Assembly (NCBI GenBank): GCA_963777315.1
Contig: CAVZQC010000005.1
Location: 1 to 64,000, forward strand
Reading direction: 5' to 3'
Length of the DNA stretch: 64,000 bases
Source: Vulcanimicrobiota bacterium
GTDB taxonomy: Bacteria; Vulcanimicrobiota; Vulcanimicrobiia; Vulcanimicrobiales; Vulcanimicrobiaceae
Under the pieces are notes generated by a model, which was given only the letters and a program-made list of their open reading frames with translations, was not told where the DNA came from and made no database searches. A program made the translations under genes and the position numbers. Of the stretch, positions 852-50,783 are shown one piece after another (within the stretch, counting starts at the first letter, position 1; the number at the start of each line of letters is the position of its first letter).

Positions 852-2753
852 ATGCACGTTCTGGTAGTCGAAGACAGCGTCGCGGACGCCGGACTGATTC
901 GTGAGTTCCTAAAGGACGGCGAAAATACGAGCGAAGTTCATACGGCATCGCGCTTGAACGACGCCGTCGACATCGCCGGGCGTCAAGCGCTCGATGCGAT
1001 CCTGCTCGACGTGTCGCTGCCGGACGCACAAGGGCTCGAGGCCGTGCGGCGCATGCGGGCCGCCGTTTCGCACGTGCCCATCGTCGTTCTGAGCGACGTG
1101 GAGGATGACTCGGCTGCAACGCAGGCGGTCAAGGCGGGAGCGCAGGACTATCTGGTAAAGGCGCAGCTCGATGGAGTATCGCTGCGGCGCGCCGTGGGAT
1201 ACGCGATCGAGCGACAGCAGCTGCTCGACAGATTGGCCAAGAGCGAAGCGCGCCTGCAGGAAGAGAACGCCATCCTGCGCCGGTTGACCGATGCCGCCGC
1301 GCGAGTTTTCGCAACTCTGGACGTGCGGGCCGTCGTCGGTTTGCTCGCAGCCGAAGCCAGGCGGCTCTGGGGCGGAAGCGTCGTGCTGTATGCGTTGCGT
1401 TCCTCGGGCGAGCTGGTGTGCGCGGAAACCTCCGGAAGCCGCCCTGCGGCAGATGCCTTTTTAAGCGAAGCGTTCGGTTTGCAGCGTCCCGTGCTCGCCC
1501 AAGATCGGCTGCGTTTGGCGCTCCCGATAGCGGGTACGAGCGGCCGCAACGAATGGATTTTGGACATCCGGAGCAGCGGCGATCGTTTCGGCGAGAACGA
1601 CGTCTTCGCGCTCGAACTGCTTCGCCAGTACGTGGGCATAGCGATTCAGAACGTCGCCTTGTTCGGGGAGCTGCAAAGTCAGCGCGCAAGCGTCATTCAG
1701 CTCAATCAGCTCAAGGACGATCTCATTGCGGTGCTCGCGCACGATTTCAAGGGGCCGCTCACGACGATCATCGGCTTTACCGAACTGCTCGAACAGCATG
1801 CGCTCGAGGGGGACGATGCCGAGGGCGCTCTTCGAACGATTCGCCAATCCGCTACCCGGCTCGCGGGTTTGGCCAACGATACGCTGGCCCTTTCGCGCGT
1901 GGAGCAGGGCGAGCTGAATTTGGGCGCCGATCCGGTGAACCTTGCGGACATCGTCCAAGAGACGATTCAGGCAGTGGAGTCCGAGCGGCAGATCGATCTT
2001 GCAGTAAGCGCACAAGATCCCGTCGTCCGCGGGGATCCGGCGCGGTTGCGCCAAGTCTTCGAAAACGTTATCGGCAACGCGATCAAATATTCAGCGCCTG
2101 AGCGGCCCGTCGAAGTGCGGCTTTCCGAAACGGAGAGCACCGTTCGGGTGGCCATCCACGATCGCGGCATCGGCATTCCCGCCGACGAGATGAAATTCTT
2201 GTTCGAGCGTTTCACGCGAGCATCAAACGCCAAGCGATCGCGAATAAAAGGAACGGGGCTCGGATTATATTTGGCCAAGACGCTCGTCGAGCGCCACGGC
2301 GGCAATATCGAGGTACAGAGCGAGTTGAGCCACGGCAGCACCTTTACGGTCGTGCTTCCGCGAATCCGTGACGGCTTGGGCGGCGTGCTGCGCGTGGCGG
2401 CGGTGACTGCCGACGATAACCTCGGACCGTACGTCATGCATGAATTGCGCACGCACGGTATAGCGTGCCGGCGCGACAAGACGCTCACCGCGCTGTTGGA
2501 ACGTATGGACGTGGAGTCGGCGGATATCGTTATCGTGGACCGCGATACGATCACCGCCGATGTATCGGGGCTATTCCAGCGTGCGTTCTCGGCAAAGCCG
2601 CGCGTGGGCCTGATCCGTATCGGGGCCTCCGGCTGTCCCGGCGAGCCGCCGGACTCGCAATGGGACGTCGTGCTGCCCAATCCGTTTCTGCGCACGGACC
2701 TGCAGGAAGCTATCGCGCAGGCCGATCGGCTTCGTTTGGACGGCGTTTCTTGA
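852..2753 (+). CDS. Hybrid sensor kinase (REC - GAF-like - HisKA - HATPase - degenerate REC)
   Basis: MHVLVVED...ILLDVSLPD receiver; H-box LAHDFKGPL; N-box NAIKYS; G-boxes DRGIG and GTGLGL. Start moved to the ATG at 852. Confidence 0.9.
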   Translation: MHVLVVEDSVADAGLIREFLKDGENTSEVHTASRLNDAVDIAGRQALDAILLDVSLPDAQGLEAVRRMRAAVSHVPIVVLSDVEDDSAATQAVKAGAQDYLVKAQLDGVSLRRAVGYAIERQQLLDRLAKSEARLQEENAILRRLTDAAARVFATLDVRAVVGLLAAEARRLWGGSVVLYALRSSGELVCAETSGSRPAADAFLSEAFGLQRPVLAQDRLRLALPIAGTSGRNEWILDIRSSGDRFGENDVFALELLRQYVGIAIQNVALFGELQSQRASVIQLNQLKDDLIAVLAHDFKGPLTTIIGFTELLEQHALEGDDAEGALRTIRQSATRLAGLANDTLALSRVEQGELNLGADPVNLADIVQETIQAVESERQIDLAVSAQDPVVRGDPARLRQVFENVIGNAIKYSAPERPVEVRLSETESTVRVAIHDRGIGIPADEMKFLFERFTRASNAKRSRIKGTGLGLYLAKTLVERHGGNIEVQSELSHGSTFTVVLPRIRDGLGGVLRVAAVTADDNLGPYVMHELRTHGIACRRDKTLTALLERMDVESADIVIVDRDTITADVSGLFQRAFSAKPRVGLIRIGASGCPGEPPDSQWDVVLPNPFLRTDLQEAIAQADRLRLDGVS

Positions 2754-2757
2754 ACCG

Positions 2758-4017
2758 TTATAGGATCTGTTTTATCACGTAGAAGACCGACAGTGCTCCG
2801 ATGATGACTACGGTGGCCCAGGCGATTGCGTTGGCCACGCCGGAGTTCACGTAACGCCCCATGACGCTCTTTTTGTTGACGATCAGCAGCATCAGCACGA
2901 GCTCCGGCGGCAACAGAATGCCTTGCAGCACTTGGGCGTAAATCGTGAATTTGAGATAGGGAATTCCCGGAATCAAAACGATTGCGGCGCCCGCGATGAG
3001 CCCGATGCCGAACAGACTGAAGAAGACCGGTGCTTCGGAGAGCTTGCGATCGACTGCAGCTTCGAACCCAAGCGCCTCGCAGATCACAAAACTGGTGGAC
3101 AACGGCAGCACGGTAGCGGCAAAGAGGCCGGCATTCAAAATTCCAAAAGCGAAAATAACGGACGCGAGTTCTCCGGCGAGCGGTTTGAGCGCGACGGCAA
3201 AGTCGGCGGCTTGCGCGGGCTCGATGTGCGCGCCGTGCTGGTTGGCGACGAATATCGTCGCGGCGTTTGCGACGATCATGAAGCCTGCTAGAGCGATCGC
3301 AAGCACCGAGCCGGTCACCACGTCCGCGCGCGCTAAGCCGATTTCGCTCTCGTCGGTCCCTTTTTCAACGACGGCCGACTGCAAGAAGAACTGCATGTAC
3401 GGCGAGATGGTCGTCCCGATGAGCCCCACCACCATAATCAGGTAGCCTAAATTGCGGAAATCGAGATCCGGACGCAGCGTGCCCGCGGCTACGGCGTGCC
3501 AATTCGGATGAGCCAGGACTGCGGATACGATGTAACTCAGGTAGACGAGCGACAGAACGACGAAGGTGCGCTCGACCGTTTTGTTGTTGAACCGCAGAAT
3601 GAACAGAAAAACGACCACGACGGAAAGCGGAACGGCAACGTATCGCGACACGTCGAACATCTCCGAAGCCGCCGCAATGCCGACGAACTCGGTGGCCGTG
3701 ATTCCGGTGTTGATGAAGAACAGCGCGGCCATGGCAAAGAAGGAGATGCGTACGCCGAAGTTCTCGCGAATGAGCGCCGCCAGGCCTTTGCCGGTGACGG
3801 TGCCCATGCGGGTGGCCATCTCCTGTACGACGATCAGCGAGATCGCAAGCGGAACGAGTACCCACAAAACCCGGTAGCCGAACAAGGCGCCGGCTTGAGA
3901 GTACGTCGCAATGCCGCCGACGTCGTTTCCTGCGGACGCGGTTACGAATCCCGGCCCCAAAACGCCCAGCAGAATGAGAAGCGAACGGCGCAGGTTTCGC
4001 TTGCGAACTACCGCCAC
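2758..4017 (-). CDS. Nramp-family divalent metal transporter, probably the Mg2+-type (NRMT) subgroup
   Basis: GPGFVTASAGNDVGGIATYS, QEMATRMG, TM6 GTTISPY; about 11 hydrophobic segments; in an operon under an M-box. Confidence 0.88.
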   Translation of the reverse strand: MAVVRKRNLRRSLLILLGVLGPGFVTASAGNDVGGIATYSQAGALFGYRVLWVLVPLAISLIVVQEMATRMGTVTGKGLAALIRENFGVRISFFAMAALFFINTGITATEFVGIAAASEMFDVSRYVAVPLSVVVVFLFILRFNNKTVERTFVVLSLVYLSYIVSAVLAHPNWHAVAAGTLRPDLDFRNLGYLIMVVGLIGTTISPYMQFFLQSAVVEKGTDESEIGLARADVVTGSVLAIALAGFMIVANAATIFVANQHGAHIEPAQAADFAVALKPLAGELASVIFAFGILNAGLFAATVLPLSTSFVICEALGFEAAVDRKLSEAPVFFSLFGIGLIAGAAIVLIPGIPYLKFTIYAQVLQGILLPPELVLMLLIVNKKSVMGRYVNSGVANAIAWATVVIIGALSVFYVIKQIL

Positions 4018-4026
4018 GCCGGTGGT

Positions 4027-5322
4027 TTATCCGGCGGCCGCCGGATGCGGCTGGCGGCGCGCCGTGATTCGCGGCAGCTCGCGGGCGAGATTTTCGGGCA
4101 TGATCGCGTCGATCGCGTCGTCGACGGTCACTATTCCCAGCATCTTGCCGTCGTCGCCGACCACCGGAACGGCGAGCAAGTCGTATCGGGCAATCGTCGC
4201 TGCGACGTCCCTGGACTGCGTGTTCGGTGAAACGGTCACCACGTCGCTCTGCATGATTCGCTCGATGCTCGCCTCCGGCTGCGCGAGCAGCAACGCGCGC
4301 AAGGTGACCACGCCCAACAGCCGGTCTTCTTTATCGAGCACGTACAGATAGTAGATGAATTCCGATTCCGGAGCTATTTCACGGATCTTGCGAATAGTCT
4401 GTTCCGCGGTGCGGTGCGGATAGATCCACGTGTAGTCGGTGGTCATCAGGCCGCCGGCGGTATCTTCCTCGTACTGCACGAGCTGGCGCAACTCGCCCGC
4501 GGTGTACTCGTTCATTTCCGCGAGCAGTTGCGATTGCTGCTCTTCGGACAACTCCGCCAGCAAATCCGCCGCATCGTCGGAATCCATTTCCTCGATGATG
4601 TCCGCGGCGCGTTCCGTTCCGATATCGCCGATAATCGAACGCTGACGTTCGGCATCGAGATGCTCGAGCGCGTCGGCGGCGGTTTCGTCGTCGAGCGAAT
4701 GGATGACGGCCGCAGCTTCGCGCGCGGAGAGATCGGTAATGATTTCGGCAAGTTCGCTGGGGTGCAGCTTGGCGAGCTTGCTCTCTTTGACCGAGAGCGT
4801 CACCTGCGAAGGATTTGCGTCGCGGATCGGCGCCACGGAGTTCCAGGCGATCATGGTACGCGGCACGTTTTCGTATATCCAGGGCGTGAAGCGCTTGCCG
4901 AACGATTTGAGCCCGAGCCTGCGCAGCAATCCGCTCACGCCGACGTCGGCGGCGACCACGCGCAATTTCCCGCCGGTATTCGCCAGTTCGATGTCGTTGA
5001 TGCGCACGACTTTACGGCCGTCGACGTCGACGATCTGCTTGTCGAGCAGATCGCTCACCAGGTAGAGCGCGTCTTCACCCGGCGGAGCCGCGGTTTTCGG
5101 CGCCCCCGTTAGCGCGACCGTGCCGTTCGCATCGACGTCGGCGACGCTTTCCATCGGTGCGAAACGCGCGCCTTGCGCGGTTTTGATCACCAGGCCGTCC
5201 ACTTGCGGAAACGTATCGTCCGGCTTGCTCACGAGGAAGTCGGCGACTTTGCCGATGGGCAGGTCGTTCACGGCCGCGCGCCGTCCCACGAGCTCGGAGA
5301 TGAAACCTTCCTGGAATGCCAT
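4027..5322 (-). CDS. MgtE cytosolic-part protein (PRC barrels + MgtE_N + CBS pair, no membrane domain)
   Basis: LHPSELAEII, MDSDDAADLL, YEEDTAGGLMT, GIVTVDDAID; the ORF ends right after the CBS pair; RBS AGGAGG. Confidence 0.88.
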   Translation of the reverse strand: MAFQEGFISELVGRRAAVNDLPIGKVADFLVSKPDDTFPQVDGLVIKTAQGARFAPMESVADVDANGTVALTGAPKTAAPPGEDALYLVSDLLDKQIVDVDGRKVVRINDIELANTGGKLRVVAADVGVSGLLRRLGLKSFGKRFTPWIYENVPRTMIAWNSVAPIRDANPSQVTLSVKESKLAKLHPSELAEIITDLSAREAAAVIHSLDDETAADALEHLDAERQRSIIGDIGTERAADIIEEMDSDDAADLLAELSEEQQSQLLAEMNEYTAGELRQLVQYEEDTAGGLMTTDYTWIYPHRTAEQTIRKIREIAPESEFIYYLYVLDKEDRLLGVVTLRALLLAQPEASIERIMQSDVVTVSPNTQSRDVAATIARYDLLAVPVVGDDGKMLGIVTVDDAIDAIMPENLARELPRITARRQPHPAAAG

Positions 5323-5387
5323 CGCCGTTCACCTCCTTTGCAAAAAAAGACTGTCTTTGCAGGAACAGCCTCGCGCGGTGAACGGCG
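5323..5387 (-). promoter_or_regulatory. Riboswitch expression platform: RBS-sequestering hairpin
   Basis: Perfect 11-bp inverted repeat, 5377-5387 vs 5323-5333. In the RNA, CGCCGUUCACC pairs with GGUGAACGGCG, which covers the 3' part of the SD up to the AUG. Confidence 0.75.
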
Positions 5388-5396
5388 CTATACCCC

Positions 5397-5958
5397 AGTC
5401 GCGAACTGCTTCGACACCACGCATCGTAGAAGACCTTCGCGGTTGCTTTTGCCCGTCTGTGTCGTTCCTCGACGGCTTACGTGCCTTCGCACGCTGCACC
5501 GTCGAGCGCCTAACAGCCGGCGCAAAATCATTCCGCGATTCGCCGCGGTTGCTTTTGCCCGCCCGTGTCGTTCCTCGACGGCTTACGTGCCTTCGCACGC
5601 TGCACCGTCGAGCGCCTAACAGCCGGCGCAAAATCATTCCGCGATTCGCCGCGGTTGCTTCTGGCCGTCCGTGTCGTTCCTCGACGACAGCCGGCGCAAA
5701 ATTCATTCCGCGATTCGCCGCGGTTGCTTCTAGCCGCCTGTGTCGTTCCTCGACGGCAGCCGGCGCAAAATCATTCCGCGATTCGTCGCGGTTGCTTTTT
5801 GCCGTCCGTGTCGTTCCTCGACGGCAAAAAGCAGTTCGCGAGTCTTCAGCCGCATTAGACATCGCCTTGTCTCGGCGCAGTCTGGTCTACCCGCTTGGCG
5901 TCTCTCGACGTTTCGGGGCAGCGGCGTGTGTATTGCGTGGACGCCTCACCTAGCGAGG
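5397..5958 (-). ncRNA. M-box (ykoK) Mg2+ riboswitch aptamer, interrupted by a 407-nt insertion in P6
   Basis: Minus strand reads CUCGCUAGGUGAGGCGUCCACGCA...CGCCGCUGCCCCGAAACGUCGAGAGACGCCAAGCGGGUAGACCAG...AAGGCGAUGUCUAAUGCGGCUGAAGAC, then after the insert GUCUUCUACGAUGCGUGGUGUCGAAGC...GCGA. P2 (CCACGCA/UGCGUGG) and P6 (GAAGAC/GUCUUC) pair. It lies upstream of an mgtE-like gene. Confidence 0.88.
5438..5841. repeat. Modular palindromic tandem repeat (A-B-C, A-B-C, A-C, A-C, A)
   Basis: 39-nt unit CGCGGTTGCTT..GCC..C.GTGTCGTTCCTCGACG(G/A)C starts at 5438, 5544, 5650, 5719 and 5787 (periods 106, 106, 69, 68). The linkers are also repeated, so there are no unique spacers. Confidence 0.95.
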
Positions 5959-48164: not shown

Positions 48165-48260
48165 TGCATTTGCGTTCATCGCTACGATCAACGCGCGAGA
48201 GGGCGCTTTTGCTACGGCGAATGGATGAAAGGGGGGCAAAGGGCGAGAACGGCGTTTCCC

Positions 48261-49190
48261 ATGATGACACGCGAACATCTGGATTTGCGCCGTCTGCCGG
48301 TTTGGGAGCGCGCCGCGATCGTGCTCGATCGATCGGATGCGCTGGGTGCCGGCGGTTCTTTCGATTTCATGATGGAGAGAGATCCGCGGGCTTTGACCGC
48401 CCGCCTGGAGCAGTTGCGTCCCGGACAACTCGTGTTCGAGCAGCGGCGCGTGGGTGACGCGGAATGGCGCGTCACCCTTACGCGAGTTCGCGCCGAAGAC
48501 AGCTCGTCGTTACTCTCGTCGGCGCTGGCCCGCAGCCCGTTGCTTTCGCAGCTGAGTGAGTCGGCGCGTTCGCTGCTCGGCGAGCGCATGAGCGAGCACA
48601 CCGCGCGAAAAGGCACGGTCGTTTTTACGGAAAACGCCAATTGCGGCACGTTGGGCGTGCTGCTCGAGGGCGCGATGGCAGTGGTCGTGGGCGCGGGAAC
48701 GCGCGAACGGCTGCTGTTTCACCTCTACCCGTTCGATGTGTTCGGCGAAATCGAATTTTTCGACGGGGGCTTGACGATGGGCCGCACGGTGGTCGTTTCC
48801 AAGATTGCCAAATACGGCGCGGTGCCTTACGACGTCGTGCGCCTGATCGGCATGCGCGACCCCGGATTCTTGGTTTCGCTTGCGGCATCGGTCTCACAGC
48901 GCAGCCGCACGCTGGCCAGCGCTTTGGCCGCGCAAGTGTCACAGTCGATTTTGGCGCGAGTCGCCGGCGCGCTGCTGCCGTACGCAGCGCCCGAACGCGG
49001 CCAGCATCCCGCGCTGCAGCCGCTGCCGGCGATGACGCAGGCGCAGGTTGCCGCAGCCGCAGGCACCGTCAAAGAGGTCGCGGCGCGCGCGATTGCCGAG
49101 CTCGAGCGCACGCAAGCGCTGCGGCGAGAGCGCGGCCACATCCGGTACCTGGATCGCTCTAGGCTGCTCGAAACGATCGATCGTTCCTAA
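48261..49190 (+). CDS. Crp/Fnr-family regulator with N-terminal DUF2249-like domain
   Basis: LDLRRLPVWER...ERDPRAL...GDAEWRV; cNMP-like FGEIEFFDG; HTH TQAQVAAAAGTVKEVAARAIAEL. Confidence 0.85.
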   Translation: MMTREHLDLRRLPVWERAAIVLDRSDALGAGGSFDFMMERDPRALTARLEQLRPGQLVFEQRRVGDAEWRVTLTRVRAEDSSSLLSSALARSPLLSQLSESARSLLGERMSEHTARKGTVVFTENANCGTLGVLLEGAMAVVVGAGTRERLLFHLYPFDVFGEIEFFDGGLTMGRTVVVSKIAKYGAVPYDVVRLIGMRDPGFLVSLAASVSQRSRTLASALAAQVSQSILARVAGALLPYAAPERGQHPALQPLPAMTQAQVAAAAGTVKEVAARAIAELERTQALRRERGHIRYLDRSRLLETIDRS

Positions 49191-49905
49191 GACCCTCCCA
49201 AAAGGTTTCCACCGCGTCCAGAACCGCCGCACCCGCGCGCAGAAAACGTTCGGGTTCAAAACCGGGCTGTGCGAATGCCGCCGCCAATTCGTCGTCCACG
49301 TGCGCAGCATGGCGCTCCTCGATCCGGTCGTGCCAAACCCAAAAGCCCAGCGGCAGACCTGGAATACGCTGCTCTTTGATCCGCGTCAGACCGGCGATCA
49401 GCTGTTTCCAAAAGCCGGCCGCAGCCCAGTGTTCGACGGCGTGGGATGCACCGGTGCTTTCGGACGGATCGGAGGACGCGTACCACGTCATCAGCGCATC
49501 GCAGAATTCCAGCGTGGCCGGCGTGCCCAGTTCGCGTCTGCCGATGTCTTCGAAACGCAAGCCCAGCGCCGCGGCGAAATCCGCGAGCCATTCAAAGTGC
49601 GCCGCGCGGAACGTGAACCGCCCGTTTTCGACCGACCCTCCCGGCGTAAAGCTGACGCCGAGTTCGTTCATGAGGATCTCCTTGCCCGCGCGATATGCGC
49701 GCAGGTCGCGCGAGTTGATGCATTTGCGCAACTGGGCTTCGACGAACAAATGGCTGAAGACCGAAAACTGCACGGTGAAATGACGCAACTCGGCGGTGGT
49801 CGCTCGCCCGTGGGCGAACCATGACGCGTAGCGGTTCATCCGAACGATCGGATGATCTTCGATGTGAGCGCTGACGGAAATTTTGAACTGCTCGAGATTC
49901 TGCAT
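49159..49905 (-). CDS. Heme-oxygenase-like di-iron oxidase/oxygenase (HDO; CADD/PqqC/TenA fold)
   Basis: DHPIV N-terminus; candidate ligands NELG...AAHFEW, AVEHW and WHDRIEERH (H-x3-E-x2-H); C-terminal FWEGL. Confidence 0.75.
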   Translation of the reverse strand: MQNLEQFKISVSAHIEDHPIVRMNRYASWFAHGRATTAELRHFTVQFSVFSHLFVEAQLRKCINSRDLRAYRAGKEILMNELGVSFTPGGSVENGRFTFRAAHFEWLADFAAALGLRFEDIGRRELGTPATLEFCDALMTWYASSDPSESTGASHAVEHWAAAGFWKQLIAGLTRIKEQRIPGLPLGFWVWHDRIEERHAAHVDDELAAAFAQPGFEPERFLRAGAAVLDAVETFWEGLRNDRSFRAA

Positions 49906-49933
49906 GGACGTGGTCCCTCAAAGGCAAGGCCGT

Positions 49934-49975
49934 AAACAAAGAAAAAACCGCCCCGGCGCCGGCCGGAGCGGTTTT
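49934..49975 (-). terminator. Intrinsic terminator in the 5' leader of the HDO gene (attenuator)
   Basis: AAAACCGCUCCGG-CCGGCG-CCGGGGCGGUUUU followed by UUCUUUGUUU. Confidence 0.85.
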
Positions 49976-50010
49976 GAACTGAGCTTTTACTGCTTTAGAA
50001 CAACACCGAA

Positions 50011-50070
50011 CTAGCCGACTGCACCGTAGCGGCCGTAATAGTACGAGGTTGCGTAAAGCGCGAACAGCAT
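50011..50070 (-). CDS. Tyr-rich leader peptide MLFALYATSYYYGRYGAVG
   Basis: 19 codons, 5 Tyr including TAC-TAT-TAC; between a promoter and a terminator; below the ORF-track length cut-off. Confidence 0.75.
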   Translation of the reverse strand: MLFALYATSYYYGRYGAVG

Positions 50071-50080
50071 GTTGGGGAGC

Positions 50081-50109
50081 ATCCTATCAGCTCCGCGGCG
50101 AAATATCAA
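50081..50109 (-). promoter_or_regulatory. sigma70-type promoter for leader peptide + HDO gene
   Basis: TTGATA-N17-TAGGAT; predicted +1 at about 50073, 2-3 nt before the leader ATG. Confidence 0.7.
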
Positions 50110-50111
50110 GC

Positions 50112-50783
50112 GTGGATGTGACTTTTTCGCCGCTCATCGGAATAGCGGGGGCCGCGGTGCTCGGGGGCGCCATCGGCATTCAGCGCCAGGCGGCGGCAAA
50201 GCCCGCCGGTTTCCGAACGCATCTTCTGGTTGCAGCCGCTTCGGCTGCGTTCACCGCGATGGGCGCGCATCTGCACGACACGCGCATTCCTTCCTACGTG
50301 GTGGTCGGCATCGGGTTTTTGGGCGCCGGCGCAATCGTGCGTCAGGGTACCACGCCGCACGGCCTGACCACCGCGGCCAGCATCTGGATGGCCGCCGCCG
50401 TTGGGCTGGTGATGGGATACTCGAACACTTTCGGCTTGTACGTCGGACTGCTGGCTACGGCGATAACGCTGGCGGCGCTCACGCTGTCCGACAACGATCT
50501 CATGCGGATTTTCCGCATTCCGCGCAAGGCGACGCTGCGCATAACCTGCGCCTCCCCGCAGATCTCGCTCGCAAGGGTTACGCAAGCCTTCCGGGAAGCG
50601 CGCGTGCGCTTCGAAAGCAGCGACATCGTTTCGATCCAAACCGAGGGAGCGGACGAAATCGTGCAGCTCGTCTATTTGATCGACCTTCCTCGCCGGCGCG
50701 ATCTGAGCGCCATCGTGCGCGAGATCAGCGCGCTGGGCGGCGTGCGCAAAGTCGAAGCCAACGAACCGTTCTTCGTCGCATAG
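50112..50783 (+). CDS. MgtC/SapB family protein with C-terminal ACT-like domain
   Basis: KPAGFRTHLLV, TRIPSYVVVGIGFLGAG, GLTTAASIW. Confidence 0.9.
   Translation: MDVTFSPLIGIAGAAVLGGAIGIQRQAAAKPAGFRTHLLVAAASAAFTAMGAHLHDTRIPSYVVVGIGFLGAGAIVRQGTTPHGLTTAASIWMAAAVGLVMGYSNTFGLYVGLLATAITLAALTLSDNDLMRIFRIPRKATLRITCASPQISLARVTQAFREARVRFESSDIVSIQTEGADEIVQLVYLIDLPRRRDLSAIVREISALGGVRKVEANEPFFVA

Follow-up and report, generated by a model that had tools for sequence, protein, structure and literature searches.

The DNA analysed here, a stretch of 64,000 nucleotides of Vulcanimicrobiota origin referred to below as the window, almost certainly holds a classical ribosome-stalling transcription attenuator specific for tyrosine. 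It lies on the minus strand, ahead of a gene whose product is predicted to adopt the heme-oxygenase-like dimetal (HDO) fold and likely hydroxylates a ring at the level of phenylalanine. There is also a good chance that both halves of this reading hold together, with the attenuator placed before a Phe-level 4-hydroxylase that is unrelated to PhhA and makes Tyr from Phe.

The original prediction had picked out at this locus a promoter, an almost leaderless 19-codon ORF with five Tyr codons, three of them consecutive, and a terminator 35 nt after its stop that ends about 30 nt before the HDO gene; all of these are present (Table 1). The promoter boxes are spaced by 17 nt, the -10 box is TG-extended, and similar boxes stand at homologues. 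This is the only promoter-like site between 48800 and 50800, but since shuffled sequences give 0.4 sites on average, the match is weak on its own. The ATG of the leader ORF (50070) is found 10 nt 3′ of the -10 box, and transcription is predicted from the sequence to start 2–4 nt before the AUG, which would yield a near-leaderless mRNA. From the leader stop to the start of the terminator stem there are 35 nt, and 28 nt separate the end of the U tract from the HDO ATG (49905). Folding of the complete leader gives a z of -3.09 against 200 shuffles. A genome scan listed 1746 terminator-like sites preceded by 772 short ORFs, and this locus alone among them has three Tyr within five codons; a comparable Tyr ORF arises by chance in 1 of 612 background windows drawn from the same loci. 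No Rfam family reaches its gathering score at the window leader (best 19.2 bits against 55), the T-box included; Rfam gives no match at the leaders of homologues either.

Table 1. Elements of the Tyr leader and the HDO gene, in window coordinates.
Feature	Position	Strand	Basis or remark
-35 box TTGATA	50104..50109	-	TTG(A/C)-type boxes at the equivalent place in homologues
Extended -10 box TG-N-TAGGAT (TAGGAT 50086-50081)	50081..50089	-	TAnnnT box conserved among leaders
Leader ORF, 19 codons, 5 Tyr (codons 6, 10, 11, 12, 15), stop TAG ends 50011	50011..50070	-	
Sensing run Tyr10-Tyr11-Tyr12	50035..50043	-	Tyr peak at codons 10-12 in 33 representatives
Anti-antiterminator (1:2) helix; core 50034-50030 with 50017-50013	50000..50052	-	Predicted; forms without ribosome
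Antiterminator (2:3): 50019-50013 with 49964-49958 (terminator loop and arm), 50008-50001 with 49976-49969	49958..50019	-	Predicted
Intrinsic terminator (3:4): 14-bp stem 49975-49944 and U tract	49934..49975	-	Sequence and covariation
Shine-Dalgarno-like GAGGGA of HDO gene	49914..49919	-	Sequence
HDO-fold protein, 248 aa; predicted phenylalanine 4-hydroxylase unrelated to PhhA	49159..49905	-	Fold, ligands, context, gene complement

Genes on the plus strand flank this arrangement. A divergent MgtC/SapB-ACT gene (window 50112-50783) has its apparent GTG start at 50112, which leaves two bases to the -35 box; its promoter must hence overlap the attenuator promoter on the opposite strand, and the spacing is identical in locus L001. 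A DUF2249-cNMP-binding-Crp HTH regulator (window 48186-49190), present beside HDO only in close relatives, runs toward the HDO gene, and the two share about 30 nt at their 3′ ends. The window neighbours mgtC, crp-like and serS were rejected as parts of the system, being retained only in close kin.

Among the best 80 of 116 homologue loci from a genome scan, 44 were placed in Eremiobacterota/Melainabacteria by record title or kinship, some titles being uninformative. In 41 of these 44, the HDO gene is preceded by a short ORF that starts with ATG and contains a cluster of Tyr codons (40 with at least three Tyr in six codons, one with two); the remaining three are explained by a contig edge (L030) and by group II intron insertions (L021, L028). 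The introns (L021:1-105, L028:1-1690, from two Obscuribacterales genomes) sit just 3′ of the terminator and 5′ of the HDO gene; class IIC introns typically insert behind terminators. A separate sample of the phylum, overlapping the first set, contained 26 HDO genomes, of which 22 have at least three Tyr and 2 have two, while in the last 2 the gene is at a contig edge or broken. The leader is also found in 21 of the 23 HDO-bearing genomes of Obscuribacterales, as detected with a search model to which leaders of this kind had themselves contributed. All 23 leader-bearing proteins in a quick tree form one clade with a support of 100; the 41 loci therefore represent one origin common to two phyla instead of independent cases, and genome counts among kin overstate. 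No Tyr leader stands upstream of the actinobacterial homologues (0/36 loci in the best 80 of 116), whose proteins are 51–62% identical, and the leader model found no match above chance near 80 distant metagenome homologues. At two of these, short Tyr ORFs (L341, L347) were not accepted, the DNA being AT-rich. Three single records deserve mention: L011, titled as a Flavobacterium bin, has a leader and gene nearly identical to Obscuribacterales copies and is probably a binning error; G112 (L105/L107) has a split HDO gene, a tyrA and a preserved leader; and G085 (L106) has a partial HDO gene with an internal stop and no leader.

When the 65 leaders are collapsed to 33 representatives (<88% identity), codons 6–14 contain 130 Tyr, 0 Phe and 0 Trp. 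The length of the run goes from 2 to 6 Tyr, and outside it the peptides vary in sequence, in length (18–28 aa) and in C-terminal frame. A TAnnnT -10 box lies 6–12 nt before the ATG in 31 of the 33, the box having also served as a tie-breaker between alternative starts. The original prediction had named an absence of conserved Tyr codons upstream of homologues as the result that would speak against it, and these codons are conserved. The layout of a ribosome-stalling attenuator that it recognized is likewise supported, with the Tyr run and its position, the near-leaderless start, the terminator and the antiterminator all preserved.

For covariation, the two most divergent representatives were set aside and the other 31 of 33 were aligned. 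The terminator (3:4) is 97.9% paired with 27 double-sided changes, and 0 of 500 shuffles do as well; the corresponding values are 80.9%, 18 and 0/500 for the antiterminator (2:3), and 80%, 15 and 2/500 for the 1:2 helix. The consensus structures came from the very alignment tested, which favours them over the slid controls. Antiterminator covariation is modest, with seven pairs showing double-sided changes, a number reached by 175 of 500 shuffles. The 1:2 pairing first proposed by eye coincides with the consensus helix across homologues, while the 2:3 pairing is in the register of the minimum free energy structure and really extends by three pairs, into the terminator loop.

The effect of translation was modelled by equilibrium folding of truncated transcripts, with the ribosome represented as a 12-nt footprint. 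Counting the leaders in which 8 nt or more of the 5′ arm and loop of the terminator find upstream partners, one obtains all 33 with the ribosome on the first Tyr codon, 32/33 with it on the last Tyr, 5/33 with it at the stop, and 21/33 without ribosome. Compared with shuffles of segment 2, the antiterminator has a mean z of -2.0 (p ≤ 0.05 in 21 of 33 leaders). For the full-length leader of the window, a ribosome on Tyr10 gives the antiterminator fold (-36.6), and a ribosome at the stop, or none, gives the terminator fold. The predicted polarity is therefore ON when the Tyr codons are slow. Three marks of attenuators of the trpL/pheL type are found here: a uORF in which repeated codons for a single amino acid are conserved, an intrinsic terminator between uORF and gene and, by computation, a terminator-exclusive antiterminator gated by ribosome position.

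This polarity bears on a TnaC-like arrest peptide, in which free Tyr or Phe would stall the ribosome and induce a catabolic gene. The relatives of the HDO gene in catabolic clusters would suit such a device; however, a ribosome held at the stop covers segment 2 and leaves the terminator in the folding model, and the nascent peptide is not conserved, its run varying from 2 to 6 Tyr. Of the explanations weighed, arrest is the most improbable. For the Tyr attenuator, induction of the HDO gene by Tyr-tRNA shortage, as originally proposed, would follow from the geometry and the folding.

The same RNA scaffold is used elsewhere. Searching 150 genomes of the phylum with a covariance model built on the leader turned up another 31 full-length matches at places distant from any HDO gene. 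Twenty-seven were inspected, and 26 have a short ORF with a codon run that fits the downstream pathway, a few of the genes being named through the coordinates of matches or likeness to neighbours. Nine Ile/Leu/Val leaders precede acetolactate synthase-like, ilvC or class IV aminotransferase genes; 14 mixed Phe/Tyr/Trp leaders precede a prephenate dehydratase-DAHP synthase fusion or a DAHP synthase; and there is one Tyr-rich leader before tyrA, one Met leader before a Cys/Met PLP enzyme, and one Cys leader before sulfate assimilation genes. The 27th match consists of a gene end and terminator only. These loci (L227-L233, L244-L251, L253-L263) come from other Eremiobacterota genomes and include ilvB-like, ilvE-like, metB-like and cys genes; Rfam had no match at the five scanned. 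Fusions of prephenate dehydratase and DAHP synthase of about 600 aa head aromatic operons in many Eremiobacterota (L245, L246, L248-L251, L256, L261). No second leader of the Tyr-leader family rises above chance in the window genome, which is 90% complete. Judged by sequence, the codon run in this family appears to name the product amino acid, and since the sister runs match their pathways, the HDO leader would name tyrosine as the product. The leaders of aro operons mix aromatic codons; the HDO leader has Tyr alone.

Queuosine and ms2i6A37 are tRNA modifications that act on Tyr codons. The leader might then sense the modification of tRNA-Tyr (queuosine, or the Fe-S-dependent ms2i6A37) and report iron or nutrient state to an iron enzyme. 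This would agree with the enrichment of TAT in the representative leaders (79 TAT to 62 TAC, against 2539 to 5503 in the genome), yet Phe and Trp codons, which share the position-37 modification, are missing from codons 6–14, His, Asn and Asp are not enriched among leader codons, and the sister leaders obey the product-amino-acid rule. Modification sensing is accordingly very improbable as the main signal, even if tRNA-Tyr modification may still modulate the response of a Tyr attenuator.

The protein encoded downstream belongs to an orphan enzyme family. Pfam PF14518 stays below its curated cut-off (24.9 bits versus 28.9), PF00351, the pterin-dependent aromatic amino acid hydroxylase family, does not match, NCBIfam has no family for it, and phage records contain no match. 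A sequence search of the PDB gave chance matches only, a profile got to BesC at E 0.07, and no close solved relative was found; in the Atlas, relatives occur only in unnamed or TenA/PqqC-labelled clusters. A single-sequence structure model was poor (pLDDT 54), and an alignment-based model (pLDDT 89.9) was used instead. Its best structural match is CADD (Z 22.0, rmsd 2.4, 211 aligned residues; Foldseek E 8e-6), followed by HrmI, BesC and FlcD (Z 20.8–21.5), with an identity to the known HDOs compared of 10–19%. On this model the window protein is predicted to have the heme-oxygenase-like seven-helix dimetal fold. E81, H103, E158, H192, E196 and H199 are invariant in 48/48 sequences and fit the 3His/3carboxylate set. 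All but E81 fall within the stretch aligned to BesC, and E81 we take to be a ligand from the CADD pattern. Fusions of HDO with a UbiA prenyltransferase, a cytochrome b5 domain and a methyltransferase-like domain (P0122, P0139, P0158) occur as single protein-level sequences, the cytochrome b5 domain being in one relative (P0139). A fusion of HDO and HppD (P0123) looks intact; other long forms are possibly assembly errors.

CADD, the top structural match, cleaves a protein Tyr, and ribosomal peptides are modified by HDOs according to the available passages of a review (PMC13108848). One could therefore imagine the Tyr-rich peptide as the substrate, either a RiPP-like precursor or a sacrificial Tyr donor comparable to Tyr27 of CADD, with the terminator setting an excess of peptide over enzyme. 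A conserved peptide travelling with the enzyme, as expected of a RiPP precursor, is not what the loci contain: what is preserved is the RNA pairing, the peptides differing outside the Tyr run in sequence, length and frame, the peptide is missing at 36/36 actinobacterial loci (best 80 of 116) whose homologues are 51–62% identical, and the scaffold occurs with different codon runs ahead of ilv, aro, met and cys genes. The chances of this explanation are slight, lying between those of modification sensing and of an arrest peptide.

The gene complement points to a Tyr-supplying role for HDO. In the 81 other genomes of the window's family, TyrA is found in 6/25 HDO genomes versus 43/56 others (Fisher p 1.4e-5), and within one genus in 5/15 versus 12/15 (p 0.025), p values that kinship inflates. 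PhhA is found in none of the 81. Both HDO and TyrA occur in 6 of the 25 family HDO genomes, one with a split HDO gene, and 13 of the 81 have neither. Prephenate dehydratase was detected in 3/26 HDO genomes and chorismate synthase in 26/26; no chorismate mutase of either type was found in the five HDO-positive, TyrA-negative genomes tested, so prephenate is probably not made there. The window genome (90% complete) has DAHP synthase, aroC, hppD, hmgA and fahA, and shows no match for TyrA, PDT, chorismate mutase or PhhA. The organism would import Phe and make Tyr from it. With 10% of this genome missing, queries for ilvC, cysH, pheA, tyrA and chorismate mutase gave no match; the organism is probably a multiple amino-acid auxotroph.

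A complete Melainabacteria chromosome (G154) has HDO with the Tyr leader and two PDT matches, and neither TyrA nor PhhA. In Obscuribacterales, strong-scoring TyrA is found in 0/23 HDO genomes versus 38/78 others, a mutual exclusion that holds for that type only: a second, divergent TyrA-like protein occurs in 12/23 HDO genomes, giving any TyrA match in 12/23 versus 68/78. Dismissing the weak PDH_N matches behind it as unrelated Rossmann folds was considered and rejected, the proteins being TyrA-like. These divergent prephenate dehydrogenase-like proteins (L234-L241) occur either as stand-alone proteins of about 260 aa or joined to prephenate dehydratase (460–495 aa). Co-occurrence with hppD is uninformative (26/26 HDO genomes, 31/34 others), and as pterin-4a dehydratase is present in 5/5 HDO genomes, pterin independence cannot be argued from its absence.

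Outside the leader-bearing lineages, the neighbourhood of HDO is largely that of aromatic catabolism. In Acidimicrobiia, among the best 80 of 116 loci, hppD lies directly 3′ of HDO in 34/36 loci, a Lrp/AsnC gene is divergent from it in 36/36, and hmgA is nearby in 12. The phhA genes of Acidimicrobiia adjoin hppD, hmgA or a Lrp gene in 9/17 loci, and one locus with hppD divergent from HDO (L131) mirrors those with hppD divergent from phhA (L136/L138). HDO (7 genomes) and PhhA (17) never occur together in 201 Acidimicrobiia, a non-overlap too small to test with only 0.6 expected. One of these seven HDO genomes (G330) is an unpublished record on which no statement depends. All five HDO-bearing Acidimicrobiia tested have a PDH_N match, which fits a catabolic role, so the gene is not only a TyrA substitute. 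A distant clade was sampled through the best 80 of 318 metagenome loci plus 2 plasmids, many on short contigs: hppD is found in 35/82 and hmgA in 37/82, rising to 28/32 for hppD and/or hmgA where about 5 kb of upstream sequence is available, and phhA in 0/82. Named relatives include cyanobacteria and a gammaproteobacterium, the Gloeothece copy having a different context. No conserved reductase gene adjoining HDO was seen among the neighbour genes of homologue loci. A group II PLP decarboxylase directly follows HDO in six Obscuribacterales loci (L022, L034, L036, L038, L040, L041), with best scores, below threshold, to tyrosine decarboxylases; a gene of the tryptophanase/tyrosine phenol-lyase family, passing no specific cut-off, occurs in five metagenome HDO loci. 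Both enzymes would use the amino acid. Context is without power to separate Phe from phenylpyruvate as the substrate; L-Phe is the more probable of the two. The HDO family probably replaces PhhA.

Such context only assigns the gene to a pathway, which leaves some room for a real Tyr-sensing attenuator placed before an HDO with another aromatic job: an O2-dependent conversion of prephenate or arogenate, salvage of modified Tyr, or an accessory homogentisate step. Oxidative decarboxylation is known for HDOs (UndA; accessible parts of PMC13108848), and chorismate synthase is kept in all 26 HDO genomes. Against this, chorismate mutase is lacking in 5/5 HDO-positive, TyrA-negative genomes, a biosynthetic step makes little sense before hppD-hmgA-fahA-maiA, and the HDO gene stands where phhA would. 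Another aromatic job is hence unlikely, though it has the best prospects among the alternatives to a Phe 4-hydroxylase.

Under the favoured explanation, that of a Tyr attenuator before a Phe 4-hydroxylase, a sigma-70-type promoter would fire just before the AUG of the Tyr-run ORF, with the terminator next in line. When Tyr is plentiful, the ribosome would reach the stop and cover segment 2, or the 1:2 helix would reform, and the terminator would result. When Tyr-tRNA is scarce, the ribosome would wait at codons 10–12 while segment 2 pairs with the terminator 5′ arm and loop, and RNA polymerase, the antiterminator once formed, would read into the HDO gene. The HDO would then bind two metal ions through the six invariant residues, activate O2 and hydroxylate L-Phe at C4. 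Catabolic in hppD/hmgA clusters elsewhere, it would have been recruited here as a Tyr supply in cells without TyrA. In its fullest form, which is reasonably probable, HDO would be a third bacterial route to Tyr, a pterin-independent dimetal Phe 4-hydroxylase carrying out the first ring hydroxylation of a free amino acid by an HDO and filling the missing phhA step in many hppD/hmgA clusters; its Tyr-only leader would belong to an undescribed leaderless attenuator family, with codon runs readable as gene-function labels across Eremiobacterota.

With this leader, Tyr would join the amino acids sensed by classical leader-peptide attenuators, and Eremiobacterota would possess a whole family of near-leaderless attenuators built on one RNA scaffold with exchangeable sensing codons. 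The leader also gives a direct and cheap function test for an orphan enzyme family spread across several phyla. Should HDO convert Phe to Tyr, it would stand in for PhhA without homology to it, represent a new HDO reaction type and possibly serve as a pterin-free biocatalyst, and predictions of Tyr auxotrophy for genomes without tyrA and phhA would need correcting. In the portions of the literature searched, including PMC3082878, PMC2965389, PMC1262725, PMC13602947 and PMC4833913, neither a Tyr-run leader-peptide attenuator nor an HDO phenylalanine hydroxylase appears; attenuation surveys in subscription journals, outside that scope, could list Tyr-containing leaders. In the available part of the HDO review (PMC13108848), free aromatic amino acids do not figure as substrates of ring hydroxylation.

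Among known systems, the trpL, pheL, hisL and ilvL leaders of E. coli share with the window leader a short uORF, a run of codons for one amino acid, helices 1:2, 2:3 and 3:4, and a terminator before the gene. The window leader differs in being Tyr-only, near-leaderless and without an Rfam family match, and in governing an oxygenase instead of a de novo biosynthetic operon. AroR of Corynebacterium glutamicum (a Phe-Tyr-Phe leader before aroF) also has aromatic codons including Tyr, whereas the sensing window of the HDO leader is Tyr-only; Tyr availability is without effect on the AroR operon, according to the passages available (PMC11802643). For aroF-tyrA of E. coli and Shewanella, an “attenuator sensing tyr-tRNA” figures as a table entry (in the accessible part of PMC2659441) and attenuation by Tyr-tRNA is hypothesized (in that of PMC8632094), both citing a paper of 1980; the proposal is likewise Tyr-tRNA-dependent, the passages giving no Tyr-run leader. 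The polycysteine sORF attenuators of mycobacteria are also leaderless, with a homopolymeric codon run and several loci in one lineage, but as far as the available text goes they sense Cys and act on translation initiation (bioRxiv 10.1101/834739), in contrast to the terminator/antiterminator of the HDO leader. The Tyr T-box of tyrS leaders similarly responds to Tyr-tRNA shortage by antitermination (available passages of PMC3315439), yet it binds the tRNA directly and is untranslated, while the HDO leader has no T-box match and is ORF-based. On the enzyme side, CADD, HrmI, BesC, FlcD and UndA have the seven-helix fold and the 3His/3carboxylate pattern in common with the window HDO; known HDOs, for the most part acting in secondary metabolism, carry out C-C cleavage, N-oxygenation, desaturation, rearrangement and self-sacrifice. 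PhhA (PF00351) resembles it in the predicted reaction and in its place within hppD/hmgA clusters, but has an unrelated fold and uses a mononuclear Fe with pterin, where the window HDO is predicted to use a dimetal centre.
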